Shown: positions 1-28,067, numbered from the stretch's first letter. The stretch: DNA of 29,806 bases from Candidatus Tayloriibacteriota bacterium (GCA_037144235.1 JBAWXC010000001.1:1-29806); one strand, 5' to 3'. A program made the numbers and translations. Notes: generated by a model not told the origin, from the letters alone.

Positions 1-1692
1 GATTGAAGGAGTAGATGGTTGTGAAGATTGTGCCGCAACATTCTTCAAATCTTTCAAAGAAGAAAGGGTTTTGAATCCTTCTGTGTTGTCAGGCTGTATA
101 GTAGGTGCAGGAATGACCTGTTCGCTCTTTTGAGCAGATGTATTCTGTGGCTCTACTTTTTTTGTGGTATTCAAAACTGACTTCAACGCTGAAGCGATGG
201 CGCTTGATGTTGCTGAGGAAATAACTGCTGTTTTATTTTTTGGTGATGAAACTGATTGTTCTGTCTTTGCTTGAATAGGTGAGGGTTTTGAGATCTTGGT
301 ACTTGTAGTTTCTGGAAGTTTCGGAGATGGAGACTGTGGAGCTGTTACAGAGGCTGGAGCACTGACCAGTGTAGGAGCTGGCTTCTTCGCTGGTGTTGAT
401 TCGTGGAATTTGACGATACCCTCTTCGACTGACGCACGAGCACCTGCGAACTGCTCACGTGATGCAGCAATGATTTCTTTGACGTATGAGATATCTGGAT
501 GAGCAATCGGTGGCAATGTTGTCGCTGAAAATGGTGCTGAACTCAAGCCATCAATCATGAGTTTGAGATAGAGTTGATATTTGCCCAAATTGACGAAATC
601 TTCGATTTCAAACTGTGGTGCAAATTCTTTTTCGAGAGCTTCTGCATCGGTAGCACCGACACGAAATGCGATCATCGTACCGACGTTACCGAACACTGCA
701 GGACGTACGAGTTCATCCATCTGTTCGATGTATTGGTGCGCAATCGTAAGATTGAGTTTATATTTGCGTGCTTCTGAGAGAATATCTGCAAATGAGGCAT
801 TGGCGAAGTTTTGGAATTCATCGACAAAGAGATAGAAGTTCGGTAAGACCTTCATGACACGATCAGGTACATCGGCGCGTGACATAGCAGCGAGATATAT
901 CTTGGTAACCAAGAGACCTCCGAGGAGCTTCATGTTTTCATCACCAATCTTTCCCTTGGACAAGTTGATGATGATGATCTTGCGACTGTCCATCGCCTCA
1001 CGGAAATTGAATGACGACTGTGGTTGGCCAATCATATTTCTGATCAATGGATTGGCTGTGAACTGACCGACTTTGTTCTGGATCGCAGGCACCGCTTCAG
1101 CCGCTTGACGTTCGGTATAACTCGCAAATTCTTTGACCCAAAATGCTTTGACTGAAGGATCTTTGATCTGAGCGACGACTTCATTGCGATACTGTTTGTC
1201 TGACAACATACGGTTCACGCCGAGGAGTGTCGAGCCAGGAGCATCCATGAGTGCGAGAAGTGTGTTAGTGAGAATATACTCCATGCGGGCTGACCACGCA
1301 TCAACCCAAATCTTCTTGAAGGTACTCATGAGTCCTGATACAACGAGATGCTTTTTACTATCATCGACATTTTCGAGCACATTAAAAGAGATAGGATACT
1401 CCACATCAAATGGTGCGATGTATATAACGTCACGAATACGTTCTTTTGGAACATATTCAAGAAGGAGATCTGCGGTCTTTCCGTGAGGATCAATGAAACA
1501 CATTCCCTGTCCGCTCTGTATATCTTGAGCGGCCATATTTTCGAGCAAGGTAGATTTTCCCATACCCGTCTTTCCGATGACATAGACATGGCGAGTACGA
1601 TCTTCGGCTTTTATGCCAAATTTAAGCTTGCGGTTGCGCGCATCTGTTTCCGCAAAATAGGTTATGCGATTGTCATCATGAAATCCTGGCAT
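1..1692 (-). CDS. VirD4/TraG/TrwB-like (DUF87/HerA-FtsK superfamily) P-loop ATPase; 3' end runs off the window
   Basis: Absent from the ORF track because no stop falls in the window. Hand translation from the ATG at 1692 gives MPGFHDDNRITYFAETDARNRKLKFGIKAEDRTRHVYVIGKTGMGKSTLLEN (Walker A) ... LFVDEFQNF (Walker B) ... ILSEARKYKLNLTIAHQY, then a Pro/Ser/Thr-rich tail open to base 1. Confidence 0.9.
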   Translation of the reverse strand, partial: MPGFHDDNRITYFAETDARNRKLKFGIKAEDRTRHVYVIGKTGMGKSTLLENMAAQDIQSGQGMCFIDPHGKTADLLLEYVPKERIRDVIYIAPFDVEYPISFNVLENVDDSKKHLVVSGLMSTFKKIWVDAWSARMEYILTNTLLALMDAPGSTLLGVNRMLSDKQYRNEVVAQIKDPSVKAFWVKEFASYTERQAAEAVPAIQNKVGQFTANPLIRNMIGQPQSSFNFREAMDSRKIIIINLSKGKIGDENMKLLGGLLVTKIYLAAMSRADVPDRVMKVLPNFYLFVDEFQNFANASFADILSEARKYKLNLTIAHQYIEQMDELVRPAVFGNVGTMIAFRVGATDAEALEKEFAPQFEIEDFVNLGKYQLYLKLMIDGLSSAPFSATTLPPIAHPDISYVKEIIAASREQFAGARASVEEGIVKFHESTPAKKPAPTLVSAPASVTAPQSPSPKLPETTSTKISKPSPIQAKTEQSVSSPKNKTAVISSATSSAIASALKSVLNTTKKVEPQNTSAQKSEQVIPAPTIQPDNTEGFKTLSSLKDLKNVAAQSSQPSTPSI

Positions 1693-1701
1693 TTGAGTAT
1701 T

Positions 1702-1710
1702 ATTATACCA
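1702..1710 (-). promoter_or_regulatory. Extended -10 promoter element (TGgTATAAT) for the VirD4-like gene
   Basis: Minus-strand TGGTATAAT ends 9 nt upstream of the ATG at 1692. Confidence 0.65.
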
Positions 1711-1738
1711 TATCCATGGACTTGGAATAGTTGTGAGA

Positions 1739-1864
1739 AAGCCCCTGTACCACATTCGGTCATATGAAGCTCTTCGTTCATTAAATAATATGGCTAAAGA
1801 ATATTCCTAGTTGGTACACTCCCGCTGGGAATGCTTCATATGACCGAATGTGGTACAGGGGCTT
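1739..1864. repeat. 32-bp perfect inverted repeat with a 62-bp spacer
   Basis: AAGCCCCTGTACCACATTCGGTCATATGAAGC (1739-1770) is the exact reverse complement of 1833-1864. Confidence 0.95.
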
Positions 1865-5427: not shown

Positions 5428-6627
5428 ATGAAACCTATCACCTATATTACCCGCGATATTGAACGTGCTCTTGGCGTGAAGCCATCTGCTACGTATCATA
5501 TCGTTACCAATACTTGTCCGTATTCCGAAGAAATAAAGAAGCAATACCCTGATTTGGTGACCCTGATTCCCGCTTCTACAAAATCACTCGGCACCGCTGA
5601 TCTGATCACTCAATACAAAGAAATCCACAAACCTGACGTGTCTGCATCTGATCTTCTTGTCTTCAAAAATACGGGCCGTGTCGAACCTGTCGCACAAGGA
5701 GCTGGTTGGCATCTCCTCAATCCAAAGGCATCTCTCGCAGATACGATCGAAAACAAACTCACTCAGGTTGAATGGCTCGGTGAACTCGGTAAAACATATC
5801 TCCCACGACATGCAATTGTAGAAGTCAAAAATCTTACGTGGACCAAAGAACCTTTCATCATCCAATGGAATCATGGATACACTGGCGGTGGTACACTCCT
5901 CATCAGTTCAGAACAAGAACTTCAAGCAATCAAACAAAAGTTTCCAATGCGCGTTGCACGTCGTACTGATTTTATTCGTGGTCCATCGTTTACCGTGAAT
6001 GTCGTTGTTGCGGCAAACAAAATTCTTGTTGGAAATATCAGTTATCAAATCACCGGAACACTTCCTTTTACAGACAATATGTTCTCAACCGTAGGCAATG
6101 ACTGGGGTCTCACTCATAGCCTCCTCAATGAAGAAGAAGTTGGCTATATCCAAGAGATGGCACACAAGATTGGTACCAAGATGAATATTGCAGGATGGCG
6201 TGGATTGTTCGGTATAGATGTGATTCGCGACGATGATAATAACAAAATATACCTGATAGAAATAAACGCTCGCCAACCAGCTTCAACAACTTTCGAATCA
6301 TTCTTGCAAGAAGAAAATCGTCGCCACGGTGTCACAGGAATCACCACATTTGAAGCTCATCTCAAAGCATTGCAAGGTCAGACTATTTCTGATGATCTCA
6401 TCCTCATCAATGACGGCGCACAAATCATACAACGTATCACCGCACAGACAACTTCTATTGTTCCTCAAAAAATAGCCGACCTCAATTCCAACGGATACAT
6501 CACCATATCGTACGCAAATACCATGATCAAAGAAGACCTCCTCCGTATCCAAAGTATGCAAGGCATCATGGAAACTCACACAAAATTCAATGCCCGGGGA
6601 AAGAAAATTCTTGATATACTTTCCTAA
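5428..6627 (+). CDS. ATP-grasp domain carboxylate-amine ligase of unknown specificity
   Basis: ENKLTQVEWL, PFIIQWNHGYTGGGT, FIRGPSFTVN, GWRGLFGIDVI and IYLIEINARQ (E-x-N-x-R metal/ATP motif). Confidence 0.88.
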   Translation: MKPITYITRDIERALGVKPSATYHIVTNTCPYSEEIKKQYPDLVTLIPASTKSLGTADLITQYKEIHKPDVSASDLLVFKNTGRVEPVAQGAGWHLLNPKASLADTIENKLTQVEWLGELGKTYLPRHAIVEVKNLTWTKEPFIIQWNHGYTGGGTLLISSEQELQAIKQKFPMRVARRTDFIRGPSFTVNVVVAANKILVGNISYQITGTLPFTDNMFSTVGNDWGLTHSLLNEEEVGYIQEMAHKIGTKMNIAGWRGLFGIDVIRDDDNNKIYLIEINARQPASTTFESFLQEENRRHGVTGITTFEAHLKALQGQTISDDLILINDGAQIIQRITAQTTSIVPQKIADLNSNGYITISYANTMIKEDLLRIQSMQGIMETHTKFNARGKKILDILS

Positions 6628-6635
6628 TACTATAT

Positions 6636-7406
6636 ATGAGTACTATTACCCTTTCGCCACAGGCACTTTCTATTATCGAAAAATATCTCCATTTTCAAGT
6701 TGGATCTGCTGTATGTTCTATTCCCTATTTCAACAACAAAACACTACGTTCACGCGCAGGACTTCGTGCATTGATCGGCAAAGGTAGTATCAAAGATATC
6801 ACCGATGAAGTTCACGCCTTCATGGTCAAACAACACATCTCACCTGAAACCATTTCAAGTGAAAGTCTCAAGAAATTACTCGTCGATATGAAGATTGGTA
6901 TCGATTGTTCTGCATTCACGTATTACGTTCTCGATGCAGAATTGGCACAAACACAACGAGGTTCACTTAAGTCACGCATTCATTTTATTCACAGCACAGG
7001 TATTATCGGCAACATACGTACTATGATGAGACCTATCGAAAATTGCGACGTGGCAACATTCGCTGATGATTCCAATAGTTCAATCGTTCCTATTTCTGAA
7101 GTCAAACCAGGAAACATGATCACTATGCTCGGTGGGCCAGATAGCATGAATCGTGATCATATTCTCGTCATTCATGCAGTTGATATACACGAAAACATTC
7201 CTCAAAAAATCTATTACTCACATACCATGGCATATCCAGAAGATGGTGTGTACGGCACAGGCATCAAACAAGGAACAATTTCAATTACTGATCCTGCGAA
7301 AGATATTATTGATCAAGAGTGGAATGAAAATGGAAAACATGGCATTGATCTTCCCCTCTTCACACGAGCACAAAAGTCTACCACTCAGCTCCGAAGACTA
7401 AAATAA
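6636..7406 (+). CDS. NlpC/P60 (papain-like) superfamily peptidase/amidase-like protein
   Basis: IPYF...GIDCSAFTYYVL (candidate catalytic Cys, codon 6906-6908) and downstream DHILVIH, in the order expected for NlpC/P60. No signal peptide seen. Confidence 0.65.
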   Translation: MSTITLSPQALSIIEKYLHFQVGSAVCSIPYFNNKTLRSRAGLRALIGKGSIKDITDEVHAFMVKQHISPETISSESLKKLLVDMKIGIDCSAFTYYVLDAELAQTQRGSLKSRIHFIHSTGIIGNIRTMMRPIENCDVATFADDSNSSIVPISEVKPGNMITMLGGPDSMNRDHILVIHAVDIHENIPQKIYYSHTMAYPEDGVYGTGIKQGTISITDPAKDIIDQEWNENGKHGIDLPLFTRAQKSTTQLRRLK

Positions 7407-7433
7407 TAAGAGACGGAAATATCCCCGTATTCC

Positions 7434-7463
7434 TTGTTTCAGGCCTTATTTTCATGCTATTCT
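7434..7463 (+). promoter_or_regulatory. Promoter for mraY (TTGTTT-N18-TATTCT with TG extension)
   Basis: TGcTATTCT at 7455-7463 ends 6 nt before ATG 7470. Confidence 0.55.
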
Positions 7464-7469
7464 GTATAC

Positions 7470-8624
7470 ATGATAACTATCCTTCAAGGAACAGCTGATT
7501 TGGCTTATATTCTCGGTTTTTCCCTGATCGGGGCTGTTGTTGGTTTTCTCTGGGCACCACTTCTCAACCGAGTATTGTACAAATACAACATTATCAAAGG
7601 AGCAAAATCTGAACTCTCAGCTCTTGGTTCTCATGCTTACAAAGCAAATACCCCCGTCATGGGAGGTCTCTTGGTTATCATCACCGTCGCGGTCATTACG
7701 TATTTCTTGAATTGGAATCGCAGTTTTACATTCGTACCTGTCGGCGTGATGCTCTTGTCAGCCGCATTGGGTGCATTTGATGATCTTCTCCACATATATG
7801 GCTCTGAACGTCATTCTCGAAAACTCAAACATGTCTGGGCACTCATTCGAGTCCACAAAGATCTCAAGATGCGCATCTGGTATAGCTTCACATTACCATG
7901 GACTGTATTCAAGAGACTCTCAGTCTGGTTTGGTTCACGTCCCGGAAAAGGAGTATTTGTTCACGAAAAACTCATCCTTCAGTTTATTGCTGGATCACTC
8001 ACTGCATGGTGGATTTATGCCAAACTCGGACCTGCATGGCATTTTATTTATTTCCCTCATTTTTATATATTAGGCAACCTCGTTGGATTTGCTGACTGGA
8101 ATGCAGGATGGTTCATCATTCCTATTATCATTTTTATCGTCATGTTCACCGCAAATGCAGTTAACATTGCAGATGGTATGGATGGTCTTGCGGGAGGTAT
8201 GCTCATCATCACCTTTAGTGCACTCACACTCCTTTCATGGATCAACGGCTTTGGTGAAATTGCTATTTTGAACGCAACCACGGTTGGTGCACTGGTGGCG
8301 TATACGTATTTCAATATCAAACCTGCCCGCTTTATGATGGGAGATGTTGGCTCTCTAGGACTTGGTGCTCTTCTCGCCGTCAATGCAATGGCTATCGGGG
8401 AAGTAAGTTCCCTCTTATTCCTCGTCTTTATGTTCTATATCGAAGCTTTTTCAGTTGTTATACAAGTATTTTCAAAATACACATTCGGTCGTCGCATCTT
8501 CCGCATGGCACCACTTCATCACCACTTTGAACTCAAGGGCTGGAGTGAAGAAAAGACCGTCATGCGTTTCTGGGTAACTCATTTCTTGTTCGTCGTCTTT
8601 GGATTCTGGCTCGCTCTCCACTAA
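7470..8624 (+). CDS. mraY: Phospho-N-acetylmuramoyl-pentapeptide transferase
   Basis: HAYKANTPVMGG, GAFDD, NAVNIADGMDGL, MGDVGS and MAPLHHHFELKGWSEEK, with about ten hydrophobic helices. Start at ATG 7470 preferred over the TTG at 7434. Confidence 0.95.
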   Translation: MITILQGTADLAYILGFSLIGAVVGFLWAPLLNRVLYKYNIIKGAKSELSALGSHAYKANTPVMGGLLVIITVAVITYFLNWNRSFTFVPVGVMLLSAALGAFDDLLHIYGSERHSRKLKHVWALIRVHKDLKMRIWYSFTLPWTVFKRLSVWFGSRPGKGVFVHEKLILQFIAGSLTAWWIYAKLGPAWHFIYFPHFYILGNLVGFADWNAGWFIIPIIIFIVMFTANAVNIADGMDGLAGGMLIITFSALTLLSWINGFGEIAILNATTVGALVAYTYFNIKPARFMMGDVGSLGLGALLAVNAMAIGEVSSLLFLVFMFYIEAFSVVIQVFSKYTFGRRIFRMAPLHHHFELKGWSEEKTVMRFWVTHFLFVVFGFWLALH

Positions 8625-8625
8625 T

Positions 8626-9273
8626 ATGGACTATCTTCACTGGGATGAAAAAGTAATAACTAACTTCTCTGACATAGCAATTTCTGATTTGTATGCACGA
8701 GGATATGTCTTCACGCGCATCGGCAAAGGTGCGATGCAACAAACACGCTCATCACGTATCGATTTGTCAGCATTTGAACTCACGAGTGAAAATAGACGTA
8801 TCTTGAAAAAAGTCTCAGATCTTACTCTCAAAGAAAACCTTATTCCCTACGCAGGATATGATTTTACTATCGGCAAACTCGGCAAGGATTTTTATGACAC
8901 CAAGTTTGGTTCAGGAATTATGAGTGCTCAAAAGATCAAAGAAATGATGACTGATTCAGCAAAGAGCAACTTCACAACACTTATCACCTACGGCGTAACT
9001 GGTCATGTGATCGGATACGTCATCACGTACAAAAATAAAGATATAATGCATTATTCATATCCATTTTATGATCTCACTGCCTCAAAGGATACTGGCCTCG
9101 GCATGATGACTCAAGCTATTCAACACGCCAAAGAACAAGGTTTGAAATATATATATCTCGGCTCTCTCCAACGCCCGAGTGATACCTACAAACTCCAATT
9201 CAAAGGACTTGAATGGTTCGATGGAACTTCATGGAAAACAGATCTTGAAGAAGTAAAGAATATCTTGAAATAA
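8626..9273 (+). CDS. ATE/Bpt-like aminoacyl-tRNA-dependent transferase (GNAT-like fold), cysteine-free
   Basis: MDYL...LYARGY...SRIDLSAFELTSENRRILKK..DL matches the ATE_N pattern. YSYPFYD...GLGMM...A...GLKYIYLG...TYKLQF..LE...W matches ATE_C. ATG lies 1 nt after the mraY stop. Confidence 0.75.
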   Translation: MDYLHWDEKVITNFSDIAISDLYARGYVFTRIGKGAMQQTRSSRIDLSAFELTSENRRILKKVSDLTLKENLIPYAGYDFTIGKLGKDFYDTKFGSGIMSAQKIKEMMTDSAKSNFTTLITYGVTGHVIGYVITYKNKDIMHYSYPFYDLTASKDTGLGMMTQAIQHAKEQGLKYIYLGSLQRPSDTYKLQFKGLEWFDGTSWKTDLEEVKNILK

Positions 9274-9274
9274 C

Positions 9275-10693
9275 ATGTCTCAACCCCTCCCAAAACATGT
9301 CCACGTCATCGGTATCTGCGGTGTCGCCACCAGCGCTCTCGCAATCGCTTTCAAAGATGCCGGCGTCATCGTAACTGGTTCTGACAAAGGATTCTTTCCC
9401 CCTGTTTCAACAGAGCTAGAAAAACACAATATCTCTTTTTATGCAGGATGGCATCCAGAATTGATGATTAAAGACGGGGTCCCTGACGTCATTATTGTTG
9501 GCACCGCATCTGGTAGTAACAATCCTGAGACTATATACGCCAAAGAACATGCTATTCCTATGTATTCTTTCGCTGAAGCAATTGGCACATTCTTTTCCAA
9601 GAAAAATTCAATCGTCTGTGCAGGAACATGGGGCAAGACATCCTCATCGGCACTTCTTTCTTACATCCTTATCCATGCACAATTCAAACCAACGTATATG
9701 TTTGGCGGTGTTTCTCTTTCTCATGAAGCATCCGCTCAACTCACTGACAGTGACTGGAGTGTGTTCGAAGGTGATGAATACAAGAGTGGACCAACTGATC
9801 CAACTGCAAAATTCTTCTATTACAAACCGACTCACCTATTGTTGAGTGCGGTGTCATGGGATCATGCAGATCTGTATCCAACAGAAGAATCCTATTTTCA
9901 GATATTCAAAAAGCTTCTTGCGCAAATTCCCCAAGATAGTTTCATCGTCGGCTGCGCAGATCATATGGGTGCCATGAGTCTCTTGAATAATTTTACTGGC
10001 AAAAAAATCCTCTACGGCCACGAAGGAACAAAAGATGCTACCTATACCTACAGTAATGTAATCCAAACACAACATGGTCTCGATCTCGAAATCCAAAACC
10101 AAACCAATCATTGGCATATCCATTCCCCTATGTTAGGAACGTATCAAGCAGAAAATATTACTGGGTGTTTCGCTATGGCCATGGAACTCGGAGTAAGTCC
10201 GGAGAAAATTGTAGAGGCAATCGGTTCATTCAAGGGACTCAAACGTCGTCTCGAAAAACGCCTCGATGGTGACATATCTATATTCGACGATATTGCACAT
10301 TCTCCTGAAAAAGCTTCGTCTGTTCTCCATACTCTCCGTCAGATTTATGAAGGAAAAATCATTACTATATTCGAACCGAATATTGGCGGACGTGAGCGTG
10401 AATCTGCTGCAAAATATGATAATGCATTCAAAAACTCAGATGTCGTTATTATTCCTCGTCTCACCAAACTCAAAGTTGCACACGATGAACAAGAACAACC
10501 AATGGATGGATCTGCATTGGCAGATGTGATCAAACGTACTCACAATAATGTAGTGCACATAGACAACGATGAAGAACTCGTTTCATTCTTGAAATCACAT
10601 ACTACAAAAGGCGATGTGATCGCCTTTCTCGGAAGTCATGGGTTCAGAGGAATGATAGAGGAAACAGTGAAAATGTTAAATTTTCAAGGTTAA
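9275..10693 (+). CDS. mpl: Mur ligase of the Mpl/MurC group (Mpl-like murein peptide ligase)
   Basis: HVIGICG, VTGSDKGFFPPVST, AGTWGKT, EGDEY, KFFYYKP, WDHADLY, GLKRRLE, DDIAHSP and IFEP. The GICG, GSD..x.PP and KF..Y.P motifs resemble Mpl more than MurC. Confidence 0.75.
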   Translation: MSQPLPKHVHVIGICGVATSALAIAFKDAGVIVTGSDKGFFPPVSTELEKHNISFYAGWHPELMIKDGVPDVIIVGTASGSNNPETIYAKEHAIPMYSFAEAIGTFFSKKNSIVCAGTWGKTSSSALLSYILIHAQFKPTYMFGGVSLSHEASAQLTDSDWSVFEGDEYKSGPTDPTAKFFYYKPTHLLLSAVSWDHADLYPTEESYFQIFKKLLAQIPQDSFIVGCADHMGAMSLLNNFTGKKILYGHEGTKDATYTYSNVIQTQHGLDLEIQNQTNHWHIHSPMLGTYQAENITGCFAMAMELGVSPEKIVEAIGSFKGLKRRLEKRLDGDISIFDDIAHSPEKASSVLHTLRQIYEGKIITIFEPNIGGRERESAAKYDNAFKNSDVVIIPRLTKLKVAHDEQEQPMDGSALADVIKRTHNNVVHIDNDEELVSFLKSHTTKGDVIAFLGSHGFRGMIEETVKMLNFQG

Positions 10694-10762
10694 AGGTTAA
10701 AGTCCCCAAACCAAACGAAGATCTAGGTCTAATTGAAAATTTGACCTTTAACCTTGAAAATT
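10679..10762. repeat. Inverted repeat A of the TTTTCAAGGTTAAA family (23-bp arms, 22/23 match)
   Basis: AATTTTCAAGGTTAAAGGTTAAA (10679-10701) / TTTGACCTTTAACCTTGAAAATT (10740-10762). It lies between the convergent stops of mpl and the small Zn-ribbon gene. Confidence 0.9.
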
Positions 10763-10765
10763 GGC

Positions 10766-10939
10766 TTATTTTCCTTCATCAACAATCTCAGTCTTGACTG
10801 CCCCATCAGAAGCAATCTCTTTGATCGCGAGTGTCATACCGCAATGATTGCACTCGATCACCATACCAATGGCGAGATTCTGATATTTTGAAGTATCAAC
10901 AGTATTTTTACATTCAGGACATACACACGTTGTTTTCAT
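10766..10939 (-). CDS. LysW-like zinc-ribbon protein (57 aa; putative carrier protein) ending in -IVDEGK
   Basis: Below the length cutoff of the ORF track. Hand translation: MKTTCVCPECKNTVDTSKYQNLAIGMVIECNHCGMTLAIKEIASDGAVKTEIVDEGK. It has CPEC...G..I.C..CG..L spacing like LysW and a canonical promoter upstream. Confidence 0.8.
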   Translation of the reverse strand: MKTTCVCPECKNTVDTSKYQNLAIGMVIECNHCGMTLAIKEIASDGAVKTEIVDEGK

Positions 10940-10999
10940 AGATAAATAGATTAGTAGATAATGATGTGAATAAATAACAAAACGGCTATATAACCGTAC

Positions 11000-11033
11000 T
11001 TCACATAGTACCCAAAAAATAGTAGGATGACAA
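11000..11033. promoter_or_regulatory. Overlapping divergent sigma70-type promoters
   Basis: Minus strand: TTGTCA (11028-11033)-N17-TACTAT (11005-11010) toward the LysW-like gene. Plus strand: TTCACA (11000-11005)-N17-TAGGAT (11023-11028) toward the PLP enzyme. Confidence 0.6.
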
Positions 11034-11035
11034 TA

Positions 11036-11108
11036 TCAAGTTTCAAGGTTAAATTCCAAAGGTTAAATTATTTTTGACTTTAATTGAAAATTTAACCTTG
11101 AAAATTGA
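11036..11108. repeat. Inverted repeat B of the TTTTCAAGGTTAAA family
   Basis: TTTCAAGGTTAAATT (11041-11055) / AATTTAACCTTGAAA (11089-11103) is a perfect 15-bp pair, extendable to 19/20. It ends 6 nt before ATG 11115. Confidence 0.9.
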
Positions 11109-11114
11109 ACATTT

Positions 11115-11987
11115 ATGTCAACTCCCCTCGAATCATACCCTGAGCTTGCCCGAGCTATCGGCGTGCCAACTCTCTACTTCAAGCGAGATGATCTTCATGA
11201 ATATGGTTCTCACAAAGGCCGTTCCATTCCTGTCATGATAGATTTGTACTATGCATCTGGTGACAGAGAATTCGTCATCTCTTCTTCTGGAAATGCTGCC
11301 CTCGCCGCTGCTCTGTATATCAAAGAGCTTAACAATCGTTCAGATGAAAAAGCTTCTCTTGATATCCTTGTCGGTATCCATATCGCCCCACACAAGCTAG
11401 AAAAGCTCAAAAAGCTCGAGGACAAGTATATACGCATTTTGAGCAAAGAACGCCCTCTACAGGCCATTTTACAGGCTACAGACGAAGGTAAACGCAGCCT
11501 TCGACAGTCTACCGATGATACTGCCCTTATAGGGTACGAATCTCTCGCACAAGAGCTTCTCGATATCAAAAATCTCGGGGCTGTATTTATCGGGACTTCT
11601 TCAGGTACAACTGCTCAAGCACTCGCATCCTATTTCGCCACTCACAAACATCCAGTTCAAGTTCACATTGTACAAACATCTTCATGCCACCCTCTTTCTG
11701 ATACATATAGCGTATATGATGGACCAGAAGAACGTTCAATTGCCGATGCGATCGTAGACATTACTGCGCACAGAAAAAAATATCTCCTTCCTCTCATAGA
11801 AAAAACGGGAGGATATGGTTGGGTGGCAACCAATGAACAGATCGAAGCTGCTCAGACTATTGTTTGGGACAATGAACAACTCGAAATTTCTACGAACAGT
11901 GCCCTTTCAGTCGCAGGACTGATGCAAGCGGTCTATACCGGACGAGAAATCACCGGTGCAGTTGTGTGTATGATTTGTGGAGAGTGA
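11115..11987 (+). CDS. PLP-dependent enzyme, fold type II (threonine synthase/cysteine synthase/Ser-Thr dehydratase superfamily)
   Basis: LYFKRDDLHEYGSHKGR (Schiff-base Lys), SSSGNAALA, GTSSGTT (phosphate loop) and STNSALSVAG. Catalytic core only. Confidence 0.88.
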   Translation: MSTPLESYPELARAIGVPTLYFKRDDLHEYGSHKGRSIPVMIDLYYASGDREFVISSSGNAALAAALYIKELNNRSDEKASLDILVGIHIAPHKLEKLKKLEDKYIRILSKERPLQAILQATDEGKRSLRQSTDDTALIGYESLAQELLDIKNLGAVFIGTSSGTTAQALASYFATHKHPVQVHIVQTSSCHPLSDTYSVYDGPEERSIADAIVDITAHRKKYLLPLIEKTGGYGWVATNEQIEAAQTIVWDNEQLEISTNSALSVAGLMQAVYTGREITGAVVCMICGE

Positions 11988-11997
11988 AGAAATTTAC

Positions 11998-12453
11998 AAT
12001 TTTCAAGGTTAAAGGTTCAATTAATCACACAGTTGATTTTGATGAGCGAATTATCTTGGAGAAGATCAATAAGAGTTCACCTGCTTCTTTCCATAGAATG
12101 ACAAGATTGTCTCTATGACTAGGATTTGATGTAGCGATTAAGCGTAACCAATGCTTTGTCTCACGTATCTCTTTCTTGGCAATAGATACTTTGTGAATAA
12201 AATCTTTTTTACTTTCAGCTTCAATGGCTTCACAATAATTTGCCCCTATTGAGCCAGATGAACCAACAACTTGTTCAATCAATCTACAATTAACTGAATC
12301 TATTTTTATTGATCGAACAAAATGAATAACTTGCTCAGCAAATTTGGCAGTCCTGTCTTCCAAATCGTATTTCTGTTTTTTATTCTCCATAGATAATATG
12401 CCAGCAAAAAATTGCCTTAATTATTTATAATTTAGCCTTTAACCTTGAACATT
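11998..12453. repeat. Inverted repeat pair C bracketing the four-helix-bundle gene
   Basis: AATTTTCAAGGTTAAAGGTT (11998-12017) / AGCCTTTAACCTTGAACATT (12434-12453), 18/20 match, plus an extra TTTAACCTT unit at 12452-12460. Confidence 0.85.
12025..12390 (-). CDS. Four helix bundle protein (23S rRNA-IVS / Avd-like family)
   Basis: YDLEDRTAKFA...QVVGSSGSIGANYCEA..AESKKDFIHKVSIAKKEIRETKHWLRL...EAGELLLIF. Confidence 0.92.
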   Translation of the reverse strand: MENKKQKYDLEDRTAKFAEQVIHFVRSIKIDSVNCRLIEQVVGSSGSIGANYCEAIEAESKKDFIHKVSIAKKEIRETKHWLRLIATSNPSHRDNLVILWKEAGELLLIFSKIIRSSKSTV

Positions 12454-12459
12454 TAACCT

Positions 12460-13779
12460 TTATAGACCTCTCACCGCTTTCACAAACCTTTCCCCTCTTT
12501 CCTTACGTGAACGGTCGAAACCACCAGCTTCAAATCCTGGACTAAAAAGTACTTTGTCACCTGGCTGCGCATGTTCATACGTAAGAATAGTTGCTTCTTC
12601 AAGAGATTGAACTGTAGTGATCTTTACATCTTGAATGGATTGAAGGGTGAGACGTTCCTTCATCGTGCCACTTCCTGGGAGAAGAATGACTTCCTTTACA
12701 TGTGTAGGTAACAAACCGTACAACACTCCATATTCACATCCTGTATCTACCCCACCAAATACGAGAATAGTATTTTGGGCTGATCCAAAAGTTTGTACTG
12801 CTGACTCAGTCGAATATGAACATATCGAAGCTGTGTCATTGTAGAACTCAATATGTTTTACCTTTTTGATAAATTCAAGTCTTCCCTTAAGTGCTTTCCA
12901 TGATTCGAATAGAGACTGAGCTGTTTCATCAGGAACTTTGAATAATCGTGCAGTCTGAAATGCGAGCGCAGCATTGTCACGATCATGTGAAGCACGAGCA
13001 TTGGGCAACCATGCTTCAGGGACCAACGATCTCTTGGTACGCAACATCTTTGCTTTGGGCTGGAATTTCATGCGATGTGTTGCATCGATCACTTCATCAG
13101 AAGCAACGATGAAATTGTTGTACGTCTGATATGTCACAATCTCAAACGGATTGGTGAAGTATGCTCCCTTTGGTGGAATAGTCGTGAATATTGCCACGTG
13201 CGGACTGATACGCATCTCGAACAATTCTTTCATGATCAGATCGACGATGCGAATGAGAATAATGTCTCCGCTTTTTGCCTTTTTGAGATGTGACAACGTG
13301 CCCAGAGCTGTCTCTGGATCAATCACAAAGAATCCCTGCCCTTCATGTGCATCACATGCACTCTGGAGCAATGGTTCGAGCATAGAGACAACCGTCGCCT
13401 TGCCACATGACCCCATCACACCTACGACGGTAAGTGGTGGAGCGAGTTTGAAGAATAATGTTTCTGGATATTCAATCTGTATCTTTTTTTCTTGAGCAAC
13501 TTTGAGGAAACGAGAGGTGCGTGGATATTCATGCGAAAGGATGATGAGATCCATATCGAGAAGATCGTCCGCAGGGATAGAACCGCACACATAGTTTGCC
13601 AAGCCGATTGAACGCAAGAATACGAGATGATTTTTGAGACGTGCTTCACTGCGCACATCATACACAGCCACCAAAGCACCTGCTTTTATCAGGAATTTGA
13701 TGTCAGTGATCATTTCTCCATGGGGACCAAGGCCGATCACAGCCACACGTTTTCCTTTGAAATAGTCCCGGGAAGTCAT
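12460..13779 (-). CDS. murD: MurD-like ligase with degenerate catalytic motifs
   Basis: GKRVAVIGLG, LIILS, GVMGSCGKATV, WKALKGRLEF, FYND and VLFSPG...ERGERF give the MurD architecture, but several key motifs are substituted. Confidence 0.8.
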   Translation of the reverse strand: MTSRDYFKGKRVAVIGLGPHGEMITDIKFLIKAGALVAVYDVRSEARLKNHLVFLRSIGLANYVCGSIPADDLLDMDLIILSHEYPRTSRFLKVAQEKKIQIEYPETLFFKLAPPLTVVGVMGSCGKATVVSMLEPLLQSACDAHEGQGFFVIDPETALGTLSHLKKAKSGDIILIRIVDLIMKELFEMRISPHVAIFTTIPPKGAYFTNPFEIVTYQTYNNFIVASDEVIDATHRMKFQPKAKMLRTKRSLVPEAWLPNARASHDRDNAALAFQTARLFKVPDETAQSLFESWKALKGRLEFIKKVKHIEFYNDTASICSYSTESAVQTFGSAQNTILVFGGVDTGCEYGVLYGLLPTHVKEVILLPGSGTMKERLTLQSIQDVKITTVQSLEEATILTYEHAQPGDKVLFSPGFEAGGFDRSRKERGERFVKAVRGL

Positions 13780-22419: not shown

Positions 22420-25400
22420 TTATTTACCCCAGTTATACAACAATATTGAGAAATCAACCGCATTTACTTTTCCATCTTTATTGATATCAACTGATGGATT
22501 ACTAAATGGTGATTTCGTCTTCCAGAAATACAACAATATTGAGAAATCTATAGAATTGACCTTACCATCTCGATTGAAATCCGCCTTGTTACCAGCTTTG
22601 ACTTGTCCGAATATTCCAAATTTTGAGAAATGATTTACGGTAGCAGTAAGAATCTTGGTGTACGTATCGAGAGTTGTAGGTAATACTTCCCATTTCTTTG
22701 TCTTCTCATTGTACCAATATACCTTCAAGGTATTTTCGATCAGACCATTGATCTGAGCGTTATTATACTTGAATGTGAGAGTTATAGGTTGACTGAATTG
22801 AGTCTGATTATTTGAAGACTTGATATCGAAAACCATGTTTGCCGCTTCCAAAAGACCCGGATTTACTGGGACAACAGGTTTCGTAGGATTATTCTCGACT
22901 ATAGGAGTAACGGTAATAACAGATGGTGTCGAAATTGTATTTTGACTCACTGCAACTGTCAGTGTTCCACCGAGAACTGTAGTAGCTTTTACGGTACCTG
23001 CTTGATTGGAATCAAATTTCGTAGAACCAACCGTAGCCACTGTTACAGGAACTGCGTATATATCACTATTGGTATTGGTTGAAACCGGTGCTCCACTTGA
23101 TCCACTACCACCCCCACCACCTCCACCACCACCACTATTTCCTCCAGTATTTGTTGGAGCTGTCGCAGTAAATGATCTATATGATATAGAACTTTCCGTT
23201 CCGAAATATGCAATTACCTTGAAGTAATAAGTGCCCGCATTTGGAACGGTCGCCGTAAGAGTTGTATTGAAATCTTGTCCAGCATTTATATATTTTGCAG
23301 CGACTGCGTCGAATACATTATGACCACTTCCACATGGATCATTGAGATCAGAGACAACACACCATTGATATTGATATTCATTACCACTCAAACCTTCGTT
23401 GGTTATAGTTATATTTGCAGATATATTTGGAGTTACTGTATTTGAAATATTATTTATAATAACCTGAGCAGGTGTAGTCACTACAGTCCAATAATCATTT
23501 CCTGGAAGAGTCTTACCAGTCTCTACGTTTGCAGAGAAAACAGTCTCCCATGTACCTGCTGGAGCATTTCCTGGTGTTGTATATGAATAACTATATGTTC
23601 CAGTAGCAACACGTGTCATGGCTACATTGTTTGCAATTATGTTACGAGATGGATCGTAAACAACGACAGTTGGCAAACTGAGAGAGTCTGTGAGTGTGCC
23701 GTTGTATATTGTATTAACAGTAGCAAGATAATTACCTCCAGCAACCACACTACCGAAATCAGATGTAGTAACTGTCCATGGTGATGCAGAAGAAAGTGTG
23801 AGTGATGTGAGTGTTCTAGTTGCAGAGTTCCAAATATCTGTTGCTAAATTTCCAGCTGAAGAAAGTGTTCTTGTGCTATATGACCAGACATTAGCTGGGA
23901 TAGAAGCAACACTAGCTACGAGAGAACTGAGCGTTGAACCGAGTGAACTAGAAGCTGCAAGGACATTTGCATTGGTTGTATTGATATTGGTATTAGCTGT
24001 AGCAAGAGTTGCGCCGAGTGACGATGAAGCATTACTCAACTGAGTACTGAGGGCTGCAATATCAGTCCATGTAATAGTATCAGTCTTGGTTTTGATGCCG
24101 GTAACATTTGTCCAATCAATCGTATCTGTCTTTGTTTTAATACCAGTGACATCTCCCCATGCAATAGTATCAGTCTTAGCTTTGATCAAACCATTTGAAG
24201 TAACGAGACCTGTGACATCAGACCAGGCAATACTATCTGTCTTGGTTTTGATAGCTGATATATTACTTGTACCATTTTCTGTGATGAGAGTGGCCGCATT
24301 TGCTTTAACTGTTGTGACGTCTGACCAGTTGATGGTGTCGGTTTTTGCTTTAACAGCGAGAGTGATAGCAGCAAGTGAGGTTGAGGCGAGGTCGGTGTGT
24401 GCATTAATTGAAGAGATAGCTGAGGCAACCTGAGAATCTGTGTGACTATTAACCGCTGTTGTTCCAGCATTGATACTGGCAGCCAAACTAGATGAAGCAT
24501 TTAGAACATTCGCAGCTGTAGCCAAGGAACCCGAAGTCAATGATGCATCAGTTAGGTTACGTGTTGCATATGACCAGACATCTGAAGCTGTTAGAGTTGA
24601 ACCAACTGAGGTTAGAGTCCTCGTGCTATTTGCCCATACATCTGCAACCAACGTGCCGAACGTGGTAAGCGAACGACTACCTGATGACCAAACTGCAAGA
24701 GGAATAGTTGAAGCAAGAGAAGTTGAAGCGGTGAGCACTGTTGCATCAGTATGGTTGTTGATAGTTGAAATACCAGTTGTAAATTGTGAATCTGTATGAC
24801 TGTTAATAGCCGTAATAGCTGAAACAACTTGTGAGTTGGTATTTGTATTTACGTTAGTGGTTTCAGTAGTAATTGCTGAACCAAGTGAACTCGAAGCCGC
24901 AAGGACATTTGCATTGGTTGTATTGATATTGGTATTAGCTGTAGCAAGAGTTGCGCCGAGTGATGAGGATGCATTACTCAACTGAGTACTGAGTGCTGCA
25001 ATATCTGCCCAAGCAATAGTATCAGTCTTGGTTTTGATACCTGTCACATCAGACCAGTTGATAGTGTCAGTCTTGGTTTTGATACCAGTGACATCAACCC
25101 AGGCAATGGTGTCTGTCTTAGCTTTGATTTGACCTGAAGTTGTAACGAGGCCAGTAATATCAGACCAGGCAATACTGTCTGTCTTGGTTTTGATAGCTGA
25201 AATATTGCCTGTACCAATTTCGGTGATGAGGGTGGCTACGTTTGCTTTGACTGTTGTCACGTCTGACCAGTTGATGGTGTCGGTCTTGGTTTTGACGGCA
25301 AGAGTGATAGCAGCAAGTGATGTCGAGGCAAGGTCAGTGTGTGCATTAATTGAGGAAATGGCTGAGGCGACTTGTGAGTTGGTGTTTGTATTTACATTCG

Positions 25401-26190
25401 CAGTTTCAGTAGTAATTGCAGACGCAAGTGACGATGAAGCACTTGTCACGTCAGACTGTACTGCAAGTGATCCTGAATTGAGACCTGCACCAGTGAGAGT
25501 ACGTGTCGTTGCACTCCAAACATCAGTTGCCAAGGTTCCGAAGGTGGTGAGGGAGCGTGTACCAGCAGACCAAACCGCTGTTGCAATATCTGATACCAAG
25601 GTACCAAAACTCGTCAATGTACGACCTGTATAATTCCATACGAGAGATGGTAATGATGAAGCCAAAGATGAAGAAGCGTCTACAACTGTTGCCGCAATAG
25701 AACTTGAAGCGTTACCGACAACTATATTTGTATTAGCATTCACAACTGAGGCAATAGATGAAGTCGCAGAACTATTCCAGACACTATTTGCAATATCTGT
25801 AGTTGAAGCACTGACATATCCAATCGTAAAAGTCTTGTCCAAGTTAGCCAGATCACCTCCCGCTACACTTCCACATGTCATGGTAGCTGGCCAGATACCC
25901 TGAGCTGTTAATGTTGTCGTACTGTAATAATGCCAACCAGTAGATAAGGCTGTCATAGGAACACTCGAAGCTACGATACTATTTGAAGGATTGTAAATAG
26001 TTATGGTACAAGGAGAAGTCGTAGCAACCAAGTTATCGTCATACACGAACTCACCTATTATGATCGTATCACCAGGAGCATATTTGTTTGTAGCGGCATG
26101 AACATGAGCCAATCCAATAAGGCCAAAAAAAATACATGCGCTTATACACAAAAATATACCGCATGTGTTTTTGTATACATTTCTAATCAT
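22420..26190 (-). CDS. Large secreted Ser/Thr-rich repeat protein (1256 aa) with C-terminal dockerin (paired EF-hand) domain
   Basis: Signal peptide ending HVHA, ten K[TA]KTD[TS]IxW repeats, VWxxxxRxLT repeats and a Gly linker. C-terminal ADFNRDGKVNSIDFSILL / VDINKDGKVNAVDFSILL. Confidence 0.85.
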   Translation of the reverse strand: MIRNVYKNTCGIFLCISACIFFGLIGLAHVHAATNKYAPGDTIIIGEFVYDDNLVATTSPCTITIYNPSNSIVASSVPMTALSTGWHYYSTTTLTAQGIWPATMTCGSVAGGDLANLDKTFTIGYVSASTTDIANSVWNSSATSSIASVVNANTNIVVGNASSSIAATVVDASSSLASSLPSLVWNYTGRTLTSFGTLVSDIATAVWSAGTRSLTTFGTLATDVWSATTRTLTGAGLNSGSLAVQSDVTSASSSLASAITTETANVNTNTNSQVASAISSINAHTDLASTSLAAITLAVKTKTDTINWSDVTTVKANVATLITEIGTGNISAIKTKTDSIAWSDITGLVTTSGQIKAKTDTIAWVDVTGIKTKTDTINWSDVTGIKTKTDTIAWADIAALSTQLSNASSSLGATLATANTNINTTNANVLAASSSLGSAITTETTNVNTNTNSQVVSAITAINSHTDSQFTTGISTINNHTDATVLTASTSLASTIPLAVWSSGSRSLTTFGTLVADVWANSTRTLTSVGSTLTASDVWSYATRNLTDASLTSGSLATAANVLNASSSLAASINAGTTAVNSHTDSQVASAISSINAHTDLASTSLAAITLAVKAKTDTINWSDVTTVKANAATLITENGTSNISAIKTKTDSIAWSDVTGLVTSNGLIKAKTDTIAWGDVTGIKTKTDTIDWTNVTGIKTKTDTITWTDIAALSTQLSNASSSLGATLATANTNINTTNANVLAASSSLGSTLSSLVASVASIPANVWSYSTRTLSSAGNLATDIWNSATRTLTSLTLSSASPWTVTTSDFGSVVAGGNYLATVNTIYNGTLTDSLSLPTVVVYDPSRNIIANNVAMTRVATGTYSYSYTTPGNAPAGTWETVFSANVETGKTLPGNDYWTVVTTPAQVIINNISNTVTPNISANITITNEGLSGNEYQYQWCVVSDLNDPCGSGHNVFDAVAAKYINAGQDFNTTLTATVPNAGTYYFKVIAYFGTESSISYRSFTATAPTNTGGNSGGGGGGGGGSGSSGAPVSTNTNSDIYAVPVTVATVGSTKFDSNQAGTVKATTVLGGTLTVAVSQNTISTPSVITVTPIVENNPTKPVVPVNPGLLEAANMVFDIKSSNNQTQFSQPITLTFKYNNAQINGLIENTLKVYWYNEKTKKWEVLPTTLDTYTKILTATVNHFSKFGIFGQVKAGNKADFNRDGKVNSIDFSILLYFWKTKSPFSNPSVDINKDGKVNAVDFSILLYNWGK
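23939..25377. repeat. Intragenic direct duplication (~500-bp copies, 942-bp period)
   Basis: About 23939-24435 aligns to about 24881-25377 at a constant 942-bp offset; e.g. CAAGGACATTTGCATTGGTTGTATTGATATTGGTATTAGCTGTAGCAAGAGTTGCGCCGAGTGA is in both copies. Confidence 0.9.
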
Positions 26191-26945: not shown

Positions 26946-28067
26946 CTACGCCCTATTTCTTCTTATGCGGATTTTATTATAAGCCTGGGTAGTACTTGCC
27001 TCAGCATCTTGAGTTGAACTTGCGTTTGTTGTTGTACTAGAAGCTGCAGGTGGAACAGGGGTCGCTGGTGTACTTGAGGCAGAAACTGATTGTGTACTTG
27101 TAGCTGAAGTCGTAGAAGCCACATCTGTTGTACTACTTGCTGTTGGTGATGTTGAAGTTGCGACAGGAATTGTGGTCGTCGCCACTGGCAGTGTCGAAGA
27201 AGCTGTTACATATATTGAAGTAGAATCTGTCGATGTAGCATTACTTTGCGGAGTCGAATTCGCTGTCGTTGTTGCTGTATTCTGATTTGAGGTAGTCGCT
27301 GTGTCTTGTGTTGAAGATGCGGCTACAAAATTGATTGGTGGTGGTAATGATATTGGTAAAGATTCTGTACTCGTAGCAGTAGTACTTGTTGCCACATCTG
27401 TAATAGTAGGTGTGATTAGAACTTCTGGAGGAACTATGCGATGACGATTGAGCCATTCTGCAACAGCTGCCACCCCTTCTGCCCATGATCCGAATGTTTG
27501 TGTAGAAGTCCCTGTATTGCCTACGTTGCCTGGATTGAACGTCTTTGCACCCACGCCTAATGTACCGAAATTTGAATCATTTCTCATAATTGCCAACAAC
27601 AAATACAGATCGATATTGTAATTTTGTGCTGCGGCATAAACCATATTCCCTGTCAGAGGACTTCCTGGAGCTACACTCTGTATATAGGTATCAATATCTC
27701 CTGTATTGACGAACGTTGGCATAGAGCTCAATATATTCAATATCTTTTGTTCATAGAGAACGTCAGTAGCATATGCAGATATATTGTATCCATTGATAAC
27801 TGCATTTGCTGATGGACCTTGAGTCTGATTTTGTATAGCTTGAACACCGCTCGCAACAACTGCTGCTGGTGTAACATTGTTAACGGTTGCAGCTTGGGTG
27901 ACATCAGTGAGTAGATTGAGTTGAAGCAACGTATTATTTACACCGAGCAATTCCTTGTCTATTGCATTCATACCTTCGAGATCTCCAACCGAAAAAGCTT
28001 GGGCCTTGGCATTATTCAAGATAATTACTTTCTTCTGTAAGATCTGTATTAAATAAGGTATATCCAT
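26946..28067 (-). CDS. Lysozyme-like (GH73/SLT-like) domain protein with long Ser/Thr-rich tail
   Basis: SPLTGNMVYAAAQNYNIDLYLLLAIMRNDSNFGTLG...NPGNV...FGSWAEGVAAVAEWL. No signal peptide seen. Confidence 0.6.
   Translation of the reverse strand: MDIPYLIQILQKKVIILNNAKAQAFSVGDLEGMNAIDKELLGVNNTLLQLNLLTDVTQAATVNNVTPAAVVASGVQAIQNQTQGPSANAVINGYNISAYATDVLYEQKILNILSSMPTFVNTGDIDTYIQSVAPGSPLTGNMVYAAAQNYNIDLYLLLAIMRNDSNFGTLGVGAKTFNPGNVGNTGTSTQTFGSWAEGVAAVAEWLNRHRIVPPEVLITPTITDVATSTTATSTESLPISLPPPINFVAASSTQDTATTSNQNTATTTANSTPQSNATSTDSTSIYVTASSTLPVATTTIPVATSTSPTASSTTDVASTTSATSTQSVSASSTPATPVPPAASSTTTNASSTQDAEASTTQAYNKIRIRRNRA

Follow-up and report, generated by a model that had tools for sequence, protein, structure and literature searches.

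The window, by which we mean the whole stretch of 29,806 nucleotides (nt) that was analysed, is contig 1 of a Candidatus Taylorbacteria metagenome-assembled genome (0.62 Mb, 93 contigs, 87% complete), and the homologs of its proteins are named Candidatus Taylorbacteria, Parcubacteria or Paceibacterota. Between positions 5428 and 13779 it carries mraY and two Mur ligase-like genes interleaved with genes for an ATP-grasp ligase, a papain-like hydrolase, an aminoacyl-tRNA transferase-like protein, a LysW-like zinc ribbon and a pyridoxal phosphate (PLP) enzyme, a group in which an earlier note had seen a candidate pathway for non-canonical peptidoglycan stem peptides. The main outcome of our analysis is that this accessory set is conserved and is tied to mraY and to an Mpl-type UDP-N-acetylmuramic acid (UDP-MurNAc) ligase in Patescibacteria genomes devoid of canonical MurD, those tested being devoid of MurI as well. 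The reading that we favour, with an even measure of confidence and of doubt, is that the window holds the core peptidoglycan-precursor operon of its host, and that this operon represents a conserved Patescibacteria arrangement replacing MurC and MurD.

The locus and its host genome

Open reading frames (ORFs) were collected in the six frames, and the families were assigned by Pfam and NCBIfam scans of the window proteins. The locus comprises the following genes (lengths in amino acids, aa):

5428-6627, plus strand: ATP-grasp ligase of 399 aa that opens the operon (PF02655, 2e-10)
6636-7406, plus strand: papain-like (NlpC/P60/CHAP-like) Cys hydrolase, 256 aa, no Pfam match
7434/7470-8624, plus strand: mraY (TIGR00445, 171 bits; PF00953, 83 bits)
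8626-9273, plus strand: ATE/Bpt-like protein of aminoacyl-tRNA transferase fold, 215 aa, ATE_C/Acetyltransf_6-like
9275-10693, plus strand: Mpl-type UDP-MurNAc ligase, three-domain (murC model 247 bits, mpl model 188 bits)
10766-10939, minus strand: LysW-like zinc-ribbon mini-protein, 57 aa, CPEC...CNHC (weak LysW match, 20 bits)
11115-11987, plus strand: fold-type II PLP enzyme, 290 aa (PALP, 110 bits), divergent from the LysW-like gene
12025-12390, minus strand: 23S-rRNA-IVP/bAvd-like four-helix-bundle gene, between the PLP and MurD-like genes
12460-13779, minus strand: MurD-like gene, an eroded MurD homolog (TIGR01087, 128 bits, under the cut-off)

The ATP-grasp, 256-aa protein, mraY, ATE-like and Mur ligase genes form a tight five-gene operon on the plus strand (5428-10693), in which the sequence reads TAA-t-ATG between mraY and the ATE-like gene (8622-8628) and TAA-c-ATG between the latter and the ligase gene (9271-9277). 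The mraY ORF opens with TTG at 7434 and the alignment of its relatives begins at ATG 7470; it is the sole glycosyltransferase-4 gene of the window, and is 72-80% identical in most genus relatives. The eight genes listed by the earlier note lie where it had placed them, with the single-nucleotide spacing on either side of the ATE-like gene, and every particular of its description was borne out. It had also stated that the locus is not a standard division and cell wall (dcw) cluster, and indeed no murE, murF, murG, ddl or ftsW was found in the window by ORF and family scans.

In the source genome, contig C43 carries murE together with alr, while murF is on C60 and ddl on C8; this genome has no canonical dcw cluster elsewhere. 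Its sole MraY, MurC and MurD homologs are those of the window; the window genes therefore belong to a housekeeping pathway scattered over the genome and are not an extra copy. On C43 (L004:1828-5855), murE and alr stand together with an ATP-grasp maturase of MvdD/MvdC type, a family acting on ribosomally synthesized and post-translationally modified peptides. Two ideas were abandoned. The ATP-grasp enzyme is not a substitute for Ddl, because a canonical ddl is present on C8 and in 40 of 41 relatives. The MurE of the whole order lacks approximately the first 68 positions of the murE model, and this short form was rejected as a sign of off-nucleotide chemistry since it is order-wide, MurD-positive families included.

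Conservation of the gene set and absence of MurD

Within the genus, the seven genes are all present in 34-35 of the 35 loci of at least 16 kb, which alone is weak evidence because synteny there extends over all of the 15-kb region, with pyk, radC and rsmI included. G011, a genus member lacking all the accessory genes, was considered as a case of co-loss and set aside as uninformative: mraY and homologs of the window ligases are absent from it as well, so that the whole region is missing or unassembled.

In distant genomes, the profile of the 256-aa NlpC-like protein gave matches in 21 of 400 other Patescibacteria genomes, 16 of which hold an ATP-grasp homolog on the same strand at a distance of at most 6.4 kb. 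The ATP-grasp ligase, the papain-like hydrolase, the fold-II PLP enzyme and the Lys-ended LysW-like ribbon cluster with mraY and the ligase in at least seven Patescibacteria families, with the ATE-like transferase accompanying them in every family except one. The gene order of families f187 and f114 is that of the window. It becomes ligase/LysW-like/PLP-ATPgrasp-NlpC-like-mraY-ftsW-murG in f66 (G087), murE-ATE-ligase-NlpC-like-mraY-(LysW-like)-PLP-ATPgrasp in f128, ATE-ligase-NlpC-like-mraY-(LysW-like)-PLP-ATPgrasp in f151 (with murE about 1.7 kb upstream in G323) and PLP-ATPgrasp...murF-ddl-NlpC-like-mraY in f222 (G601). Certain pairs recur through these rearrangements: the NlpC-like gene followed by mraY, the former being directly upstream of the latter in almost every cluster locus read; the ATE-like gene beside the ligase; the LysW-like gene beside the PLP gene (f66, f128 and f151; about 2.4 kb away in f222); and the PLP gene directly upstream of the ATP-grasp gene (f66, f128, f151 and f222). 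Identity to the window proteins is just 20-35% in f128 and f151, and the flanking housekeeping genes pyk, radC and rsmI are not carried along with it in distant families. Such clustering in shuffled orders is a classical signature of functional coupling, and the set is not a collection of chance neighbours. The earlier note had made its proposal depend on the co-occurrence of the non-Mur genes with mraY and mpl; this co-occurrence is found in distant genomes, and the combination is a real, conserved and peptidoglycan-linked unit.

The distribution of this unit was compared with that of canonical MurD, counted at E<=1e-35, among 401 sampled Patescibacteria genomes. MurD is absent from all 19 cluster genomes (7 families) and present in 321 of the 382 others (Fisher p = 7.5e-15), and the anti-correlation persists when the 7 families are taken as independent units (p ~3e-6); among the 321 MurD-positive genomes G386 is unpublished, and none of our claims rests on it. 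In none of the 41 genomes of the order was MurI found, nor in the 5 cluster genomes examined from other families. As for the D-amino acid aminotransferase, a Dat-like gene is present in 0 of 24 genus relatives, save for a weak partial match in G019, and in a few relatives a Dat-like aminotransferase exists. In the MurD-positive relative G039 (C4:59698-61850), such a fold-IV enzyme is encoded directly beside a canonical murD and is a likely source of D-Glu in an order where MurI was not found.

The MurD-like protein of the window reaches 128 bits with the MurD model (TIGR01087, cut-off 212 bits) and has no Mur_ligase_M match. It aligns over its full length with canonical MurD of the candidate phyla radiation (CPR) at 29% identity, with a 19-residue deletion, and the alignment with six such proteins reveals that two motifs of the ATP/Mg domain, ExSSxQL and DHLxxH, are missing. 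The replacement of Lys by Ala in the NDSK motif was dropped as evidence of an altered substrate, canonical CPR MurD proteins also being devoid of that Lys. No MurD-like gene was found in 5 cluster-bearing genomes of other families. Judged from its sequence and its restriction to the genus, this gene, which the earlier note had counted in the combination, is to be regarded as a neighbour stripped of its central-domain catalytic motifs and not as part of the conserved module.

Some of the surroundings deserve mention in their own right. A 23S-rRNA-IVP/bAvd-like gene is also found inside the distant G087 cluster (L169:11960-12316), between the Mpl-type ligase and LysW-like genes, and its presence in both clusters looks like the recurrent insertion of a small, possibly mobile gene. 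The G087 cluster (L169:3526-7399) is prolonged by ftsW, murG and a gene for glutamyl-tRNA synthetase, and that of G601 (L170) includes ddl and murF and ends at a leucyl-tRNA synthetase gene. In the window itself, a type IV secretion coupling-protein-like ATPase is encoded at the edge (1-1755, minus strand), a 1256-aa dockerin/MG2-domain surface protein is encoded at 22420-26190 (minus strand), and the gene of a glucosaminidase-like protein (26946-28067, minus strand) adjoins tatC.

The Mpl-type ligase and the accessory proteins

The window ligase falls under both the MurC cut-off (TIGR01082; 247 versus 335.1 bits) and that of the Mpl equivalog (TIGR01081; 188 versus 388.7 bits), the ligases of its relatives reaching 170-263 bits with the mpl model. 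Its closest match in the PDB is 3hn7, the Mpl of Psychrobacter arcticus (PaMpl), and the alignment with 3hn7 runs free of gaps through the Mpl-specific loop, where MurC structures need a 7-residue gap. This loop, (S/T)AFFDKRSK after the DEY motif, is specific to Mpl and absent from MurC-F (PMC3060825). Its sequence is partly conserved here (SGPTDPTAK in the window, SSNTDNKSK in G025). In an alignment of 14 ligases, the loop is present in the nine from MurD-less genomes (for example GDEYPSSNTDNKSKFLHY) and absent from the five from MurD-positive families of the same order, which score 396-435 bits as MurC. In the four Mpl-type genomes checked, no bona fide MurC came to light. By these sequence features the UDP-MurNAc ligase is of Mpl type and not a bona fide MurC, even though it could be annotated as murC.

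The mini-protein is related to LysW below the family thresholds (PF21344: 5.6e-4, 19.9 bits for a threshold of 27; NF041070: 20 bits for 75). The CPEC and CNHC pairs are invariant, as is the C-terminal IVDEGK within the genus, and all the copies found in the seven families share two CxxC pairs and an acidic tail with Lys at the C terminus. This tail reads DEGK in the window, f187 and f114, and EEEK in f66 and f222; it ends in VEK or VQK in f151, whereas the f128 copies have IEK or IQK. LysW-type carriers end in Glu, the EDWGE-type tail being the attachment site. The invariant Lys found here in its place suggests that the polarity of the tether would be reversed in comparison with LysW.

For the ATP-grasp protein, the top NCBIfam match (PRK06524) is far under its cut-off, and the AlphaFold2 model, with a predicted local distance difference test (pLDDT) score of 92, has PurK, PurT, PurD and the L-amino-acid ligases 3vot and 4wd3 as nearest PDB folds. 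The PLP enzyme has an invariant or nearly invariant GSHKGR Lys motif and SSSGN; its PDB sequence matches are threonine synthases, Ser dehydratases and Asp/Ser racemases, and every named equivalog remains far under cut-off. The invariants of the 256-aa hydrolase are Cys91 in GI(D/E)CS(G/A)F, His175, His196, PYFNN and GKGSP, and some of its homologs carry PF00877 (NlpC/P60). Its model (pLDDT 85) gives Atlas/Foldseek matches, all weak (E>1e-3), to papain-like, CHAP and NlpC/P60 proteins, and the enzyme is predicted to be cytoplasmic, no signal peptide being seen. The ATE-like, NlpC-like and ATP-grasp profiles returned nothing useful when searched against PDB sequences.

The ATE-like protein scores at or below the cut-offs of the families that it resembles (ATE_C, 24.2 bits for a cut-off of 25; Acetyltransf_6, 28 bits; arginyltransferase NCBIfam, 47 bits), the G033 copy reaching 30.3 bits with ATE_C, and predicted models match Bpt-like models with template modelling scores of 0.80-0.88. 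The 215-aa sequence is without any cysteine, and the Pfam scan, which detected just Acetyltransf_6 and ATE_C, gave no match to ATE_N, the domain of the conserved cysteines, nor to FemAB (PF02388). The gene is rare (1 of 200 other genomes of the class) and recurs beside MurC/Mpl- or MurE-type ligase genes in unrelated lineages: it abuts the ligase gene in G033 and G088 (27-30% identity), with a YfiH/PgeF-type gene and murA also alongside in G033; it stands beside a Mur ligase in families f128 and f151; it directly follows murE-type ligases in L161, L162 and f128; and it directly adjoins a Mur ligase in 5 of 8 metagenome 50%-cluster representatives, one of these five coming from a TGA-recoded lineage. 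On another metagenome contig the ATE-like gene is accompanied by murA, murE and a further murE-like gene, as well as by an Mpl-like ligase and a pair of NlpC-like paralogs. A contig scan with the ATE-like alignment returned close relatives only and no distant context. The cluster of G601 is devoid of an ATE-like gene, as is that of G087, and no DUF1611 was found among the ORFs scanned in either. The ATE-like gene behaves as a semi-independent module, being accompanied by a Mur ligase alone in G033, G088 and several metagenome contigs. Two occurrences may be singled out: at L187:5001-7225 an ATE-like gene precedes a Mur ligase gene on a contig whose genes can be translated only if TGA encodes an amino acid, which marks a recoded lineage, and the 809-aa protein P0196 is a fusion of an ATE-like domain with PPDK_N and PEP-utilizer domains.

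A proposed route to the stem peptide, its rivals and its relatives

The model that we propose gives the accessory proteins the task of supplying the beginning of the stem peptide. The first part of this peptide, L-Ala-D-Glu or an equivalent, would be made or supplied by them away from the nucleotide, probably on the Lys-tailed carrier, and would then be loaded ready-made onto UDP-MurNAc by the Mpl-type ligase, thereby bypassing MurC, MurD and MurI; MurE, MurF/Ddl and MraY would continue as usual. We see about equal chances for and against this general proposal. A speculative scheme can be drawn in which the ATP-grasp enzyme would tether the γ-carboxyl group of Glu to the ε-amine of the terminal Lys of the carrier, with a polarity reverse to that of LysW; the PLP enzyme would act on the free α-amine, for example by epimerising Glu on the carrier; the ATE-like enzyme would add L-Ala from Ala-tRNA to the N-terminal Glu; the NlpC/P60-like hydrolase would act as an isopeptidase cutting the γ-Glu-Lys bond and freeing L-Ala-D-Glu; and the Mpl-type ligase, essential in this case, would load this dipeptide onto UDP-MurNAc. 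In this scheme, the favoured one, each protein receives a chemistry typical of its own family: the acceptors of ATE1/Bpt are N-terminal Asp or Glu, and NlpC/P60 enzymes classically cut γ-D-Glu-diamino-acid bonds. In this exact form of tethering, epimerisation, N-alanylation, release and loading by the Mpl-type ligase, it is nevertheless a tentative and rather unlikely construction.

Several observations weigh against the replacement that we favour, or against its details. The 61 cluster-less genomes (of 382) that are also without MurD, and above all G025 (L156-L158), which is 100% complete in 4 contigs and has just an Mpl-type ligase, MurE and MurF without accessory genes, indicate that MurD can be lost in the absence of the module and that salvage may be the base state. 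Many MurD-positive relatives are also without MurI and Dat, and the missing D-Glu source is therefore not specific to the cluster genomes. The MurD-like gene is still kept in this genus and therefore probably has some function. The resemblance of the mini-protein to LysW lies under the family thresholds, the ATP-grasp fold is not of LysX/RimK type, threonine synthases and not racemases are the nearest relatives of the PLP enzyme, and the NlpC/P60 assignment of the hydrolase rests on motifs and weak fold matches. G033 and G088 possess the ATE-like gene and the Mur ligase without the other accessory genes, and G087 possesses the four-gene core without the ATE-like gene; since the core and the ATE-like gene occur apart, the scheme cannot be obligatory as written. 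Finally, the order of every step is inferred.

The ligase could alternatively serve in salvage, a possibility to which we give a minor but real place. Cytoplasmic NlpC/P60 enzymes of the YkfC type take part in the catabolism of murein peptides. Host murein peptides, imported by these episymbionts, would be trimmed by the NlpC/P60-like enzyme, for example to L-Ala-D-Glu or to a tripeptide, and re-used by the Mpl-type ligase, the ATP-grasp, PLP and LysW-like proteins being devoted to another task of amino-acid tailoring or supply. The absence of MurI, Dat and MurD agrees with this view, as do genomes of the G025 type, where an external peptide source seems needed, and Mpl is by definition a recycling ligase (PMC3060825). 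However, salvage does not explain why the carrier, the PLP enzyme and the ATP-grasp ligase are locked to the same operon in seven families, nor the tRNA-dependent transferase; moreover, the clusters read have no conserved peptide importer, and MurE is retained.

A decoration of the stem peptide, the principal idea of the earlier note, appears doubtful. The ligase would make a conventional start and the extra genes would add a branch or an unusual residue, with the ATE-like enzyme acting as a FemX on the position-3 amine, the ATP-grasp enzyme as a D-Asp ligase of the Aslfm type and the PLP enzyme as a producer of a D- or unusual amino acid. The position of the ATE-like gene directly after murE-type ligases in L161, L162 and f128 would fit, as would the GNAT-type fold common to ATE, Bpt and Fem enzymes and the existence of Asp and Ser racemases among fold-II PLP enzymes. 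But the absence of MurD and of a bona fide MurC is left unexplained, the Lys-tailed carrier and the cytoplasmic hydrolase receive no role, and the FemAB Pfam match is lacking. Of the earlier proposal, the production of an amino acid or peptide and its installation on UDP-MurNAc is retained as the best reading. No observation demonstrates a non-canonical stem peptide or a cross-bridge, and the stronger pattern is the replacement of the canonical first steps: the ligase is of Mpl type, no bona fide MurC was found in the four Mpl-type genomes checked and canonical MurD is absent from 19 of 19 cluster genomes.

It is quite unlikely that the system reduces to two enzymes, the PLP enzyme racemising free Glu and the ATP-grasp enzyme acting as an L-Ala:D-Glu ligase, whose dipeptide would be loaded by the Mpl-type ligase, the zinc ribbon being a regulator or partner and not a covalent carrier. 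The PLP-to-ATP-grasp adjacency in four families and the resemblance of the ATP-grasp model to L-amino-acid ligases speak for it, together with the weak acceptance of L-Ala-D-Glu by Mpl (PMC3060825). On the other hand, the universal terminal Lys, the acidic tail and the conserved Cys hydrolase are left without a role, and known racemases are not close relatives of the PLP enzyme. That the genes have no functional link and are neighbours by descent in compact genomes is very improbable: the 15-kb synteny with pyk, radC and rsmI within the genus would suit this view, but in other classes the families, with identities of 20-35%, are clustered again in changed orders from which pyk, radC and rsmI are absent, and the set is perfectly anti-correlated with MurD.

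To our knowledge, MurC and MurD are treated as universal and essential peptidoglycan steps and as antibiotic targets, and MurC, MurD and MurI are textbook enzymes held to be near-universal. If the exact scheme outlined above is true, all three would be dispensable in a large part of Patescibacteria. Ultra-small bacteria making up a large clade seem to begin the stem peptide via an Mpl-type ligase fed by a carrier-protein and tRNA-dependent module; if so, the textbook pathway would have a second way of beginning. It would add new chemistry to the LysW-like, ATE/Bpt and NlpC/P60 families, and could help to explain a D-Glu-containing wall peptide in CPR bacteria without a known racemase. As the earlier note had supposed, no paper describing this gene set, nor any on the MurC/MurD gap in CPR bacteria, was found by full-text literature search. 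This search did return the literature on FemX/ATE, on Mpl (PMC3060825) and on the MurD2/MurL route (PMC8788868).

Like Mpl of E. coli and Psychrobacter arcticus (3hn7; PMC3060825), the window ligase is a three-domain, MurC-like enzyme with a loop after DEY, has 3hn7 as top PDB match and is presumed to load a ready-made peptide on UDP-MurNAc. It differs by its score (188 bits for a cut-off of 389), by the partial conservation of its loop and by its embedding with mraY; as the sole MurC/Mpl homolog of the genome, it would be essential and not a recycling accessory. The MurD2/MurL route of Xanthomonas (PMC8788868) is likewise an alternative installation of residue 2 in bacteria without MurI and Dat, but it still relies on a homolog of MurD, and its ATP-dependent epimerase works on the nucleotide dipeptide. 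In the present case there is no functional-looking MurD, the MurD-like gene being without the catalytic motifs, and the NCBIfam scan of the window proteins gave no match to a MurL-named family; a route of this type was rejected. With FemX/FemABX/MurM and ATE1/Bpt, the ATE-like protein has in common a probable GNAT-type, ATE_C/Acetyltransf_6-like fold, its gene sitting among those of peptidoglycan precursors; unlike them, it has no FemAB match and is made of just one domain, of about 215 aa, in which the ATE_N cysteines are lacking. The LysW/ArgW system combines a carrier (LysW), an ATP-grasp loader (LysX), modifying enzymes (LysZ/Y/J) and a releasing hydrolase (LysK). The present set resembles it by its small CxxC...CxxC zinc ribbon with an acidic C-terminal tail and by the clustering of the carrier gene with those of an ATP-grasp ligase, a PLP enzyme and a hydrolase. 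In contrast, the carrier ends here in Lys and not in Glu and scores under the family thresholds, the ATP-grasp ligase is not of LysX/RimK type, the putative hydrolase is papain-like and not an M20 peptidase, and the context is that of the cell wall and not of Lys/Arg synthesis.

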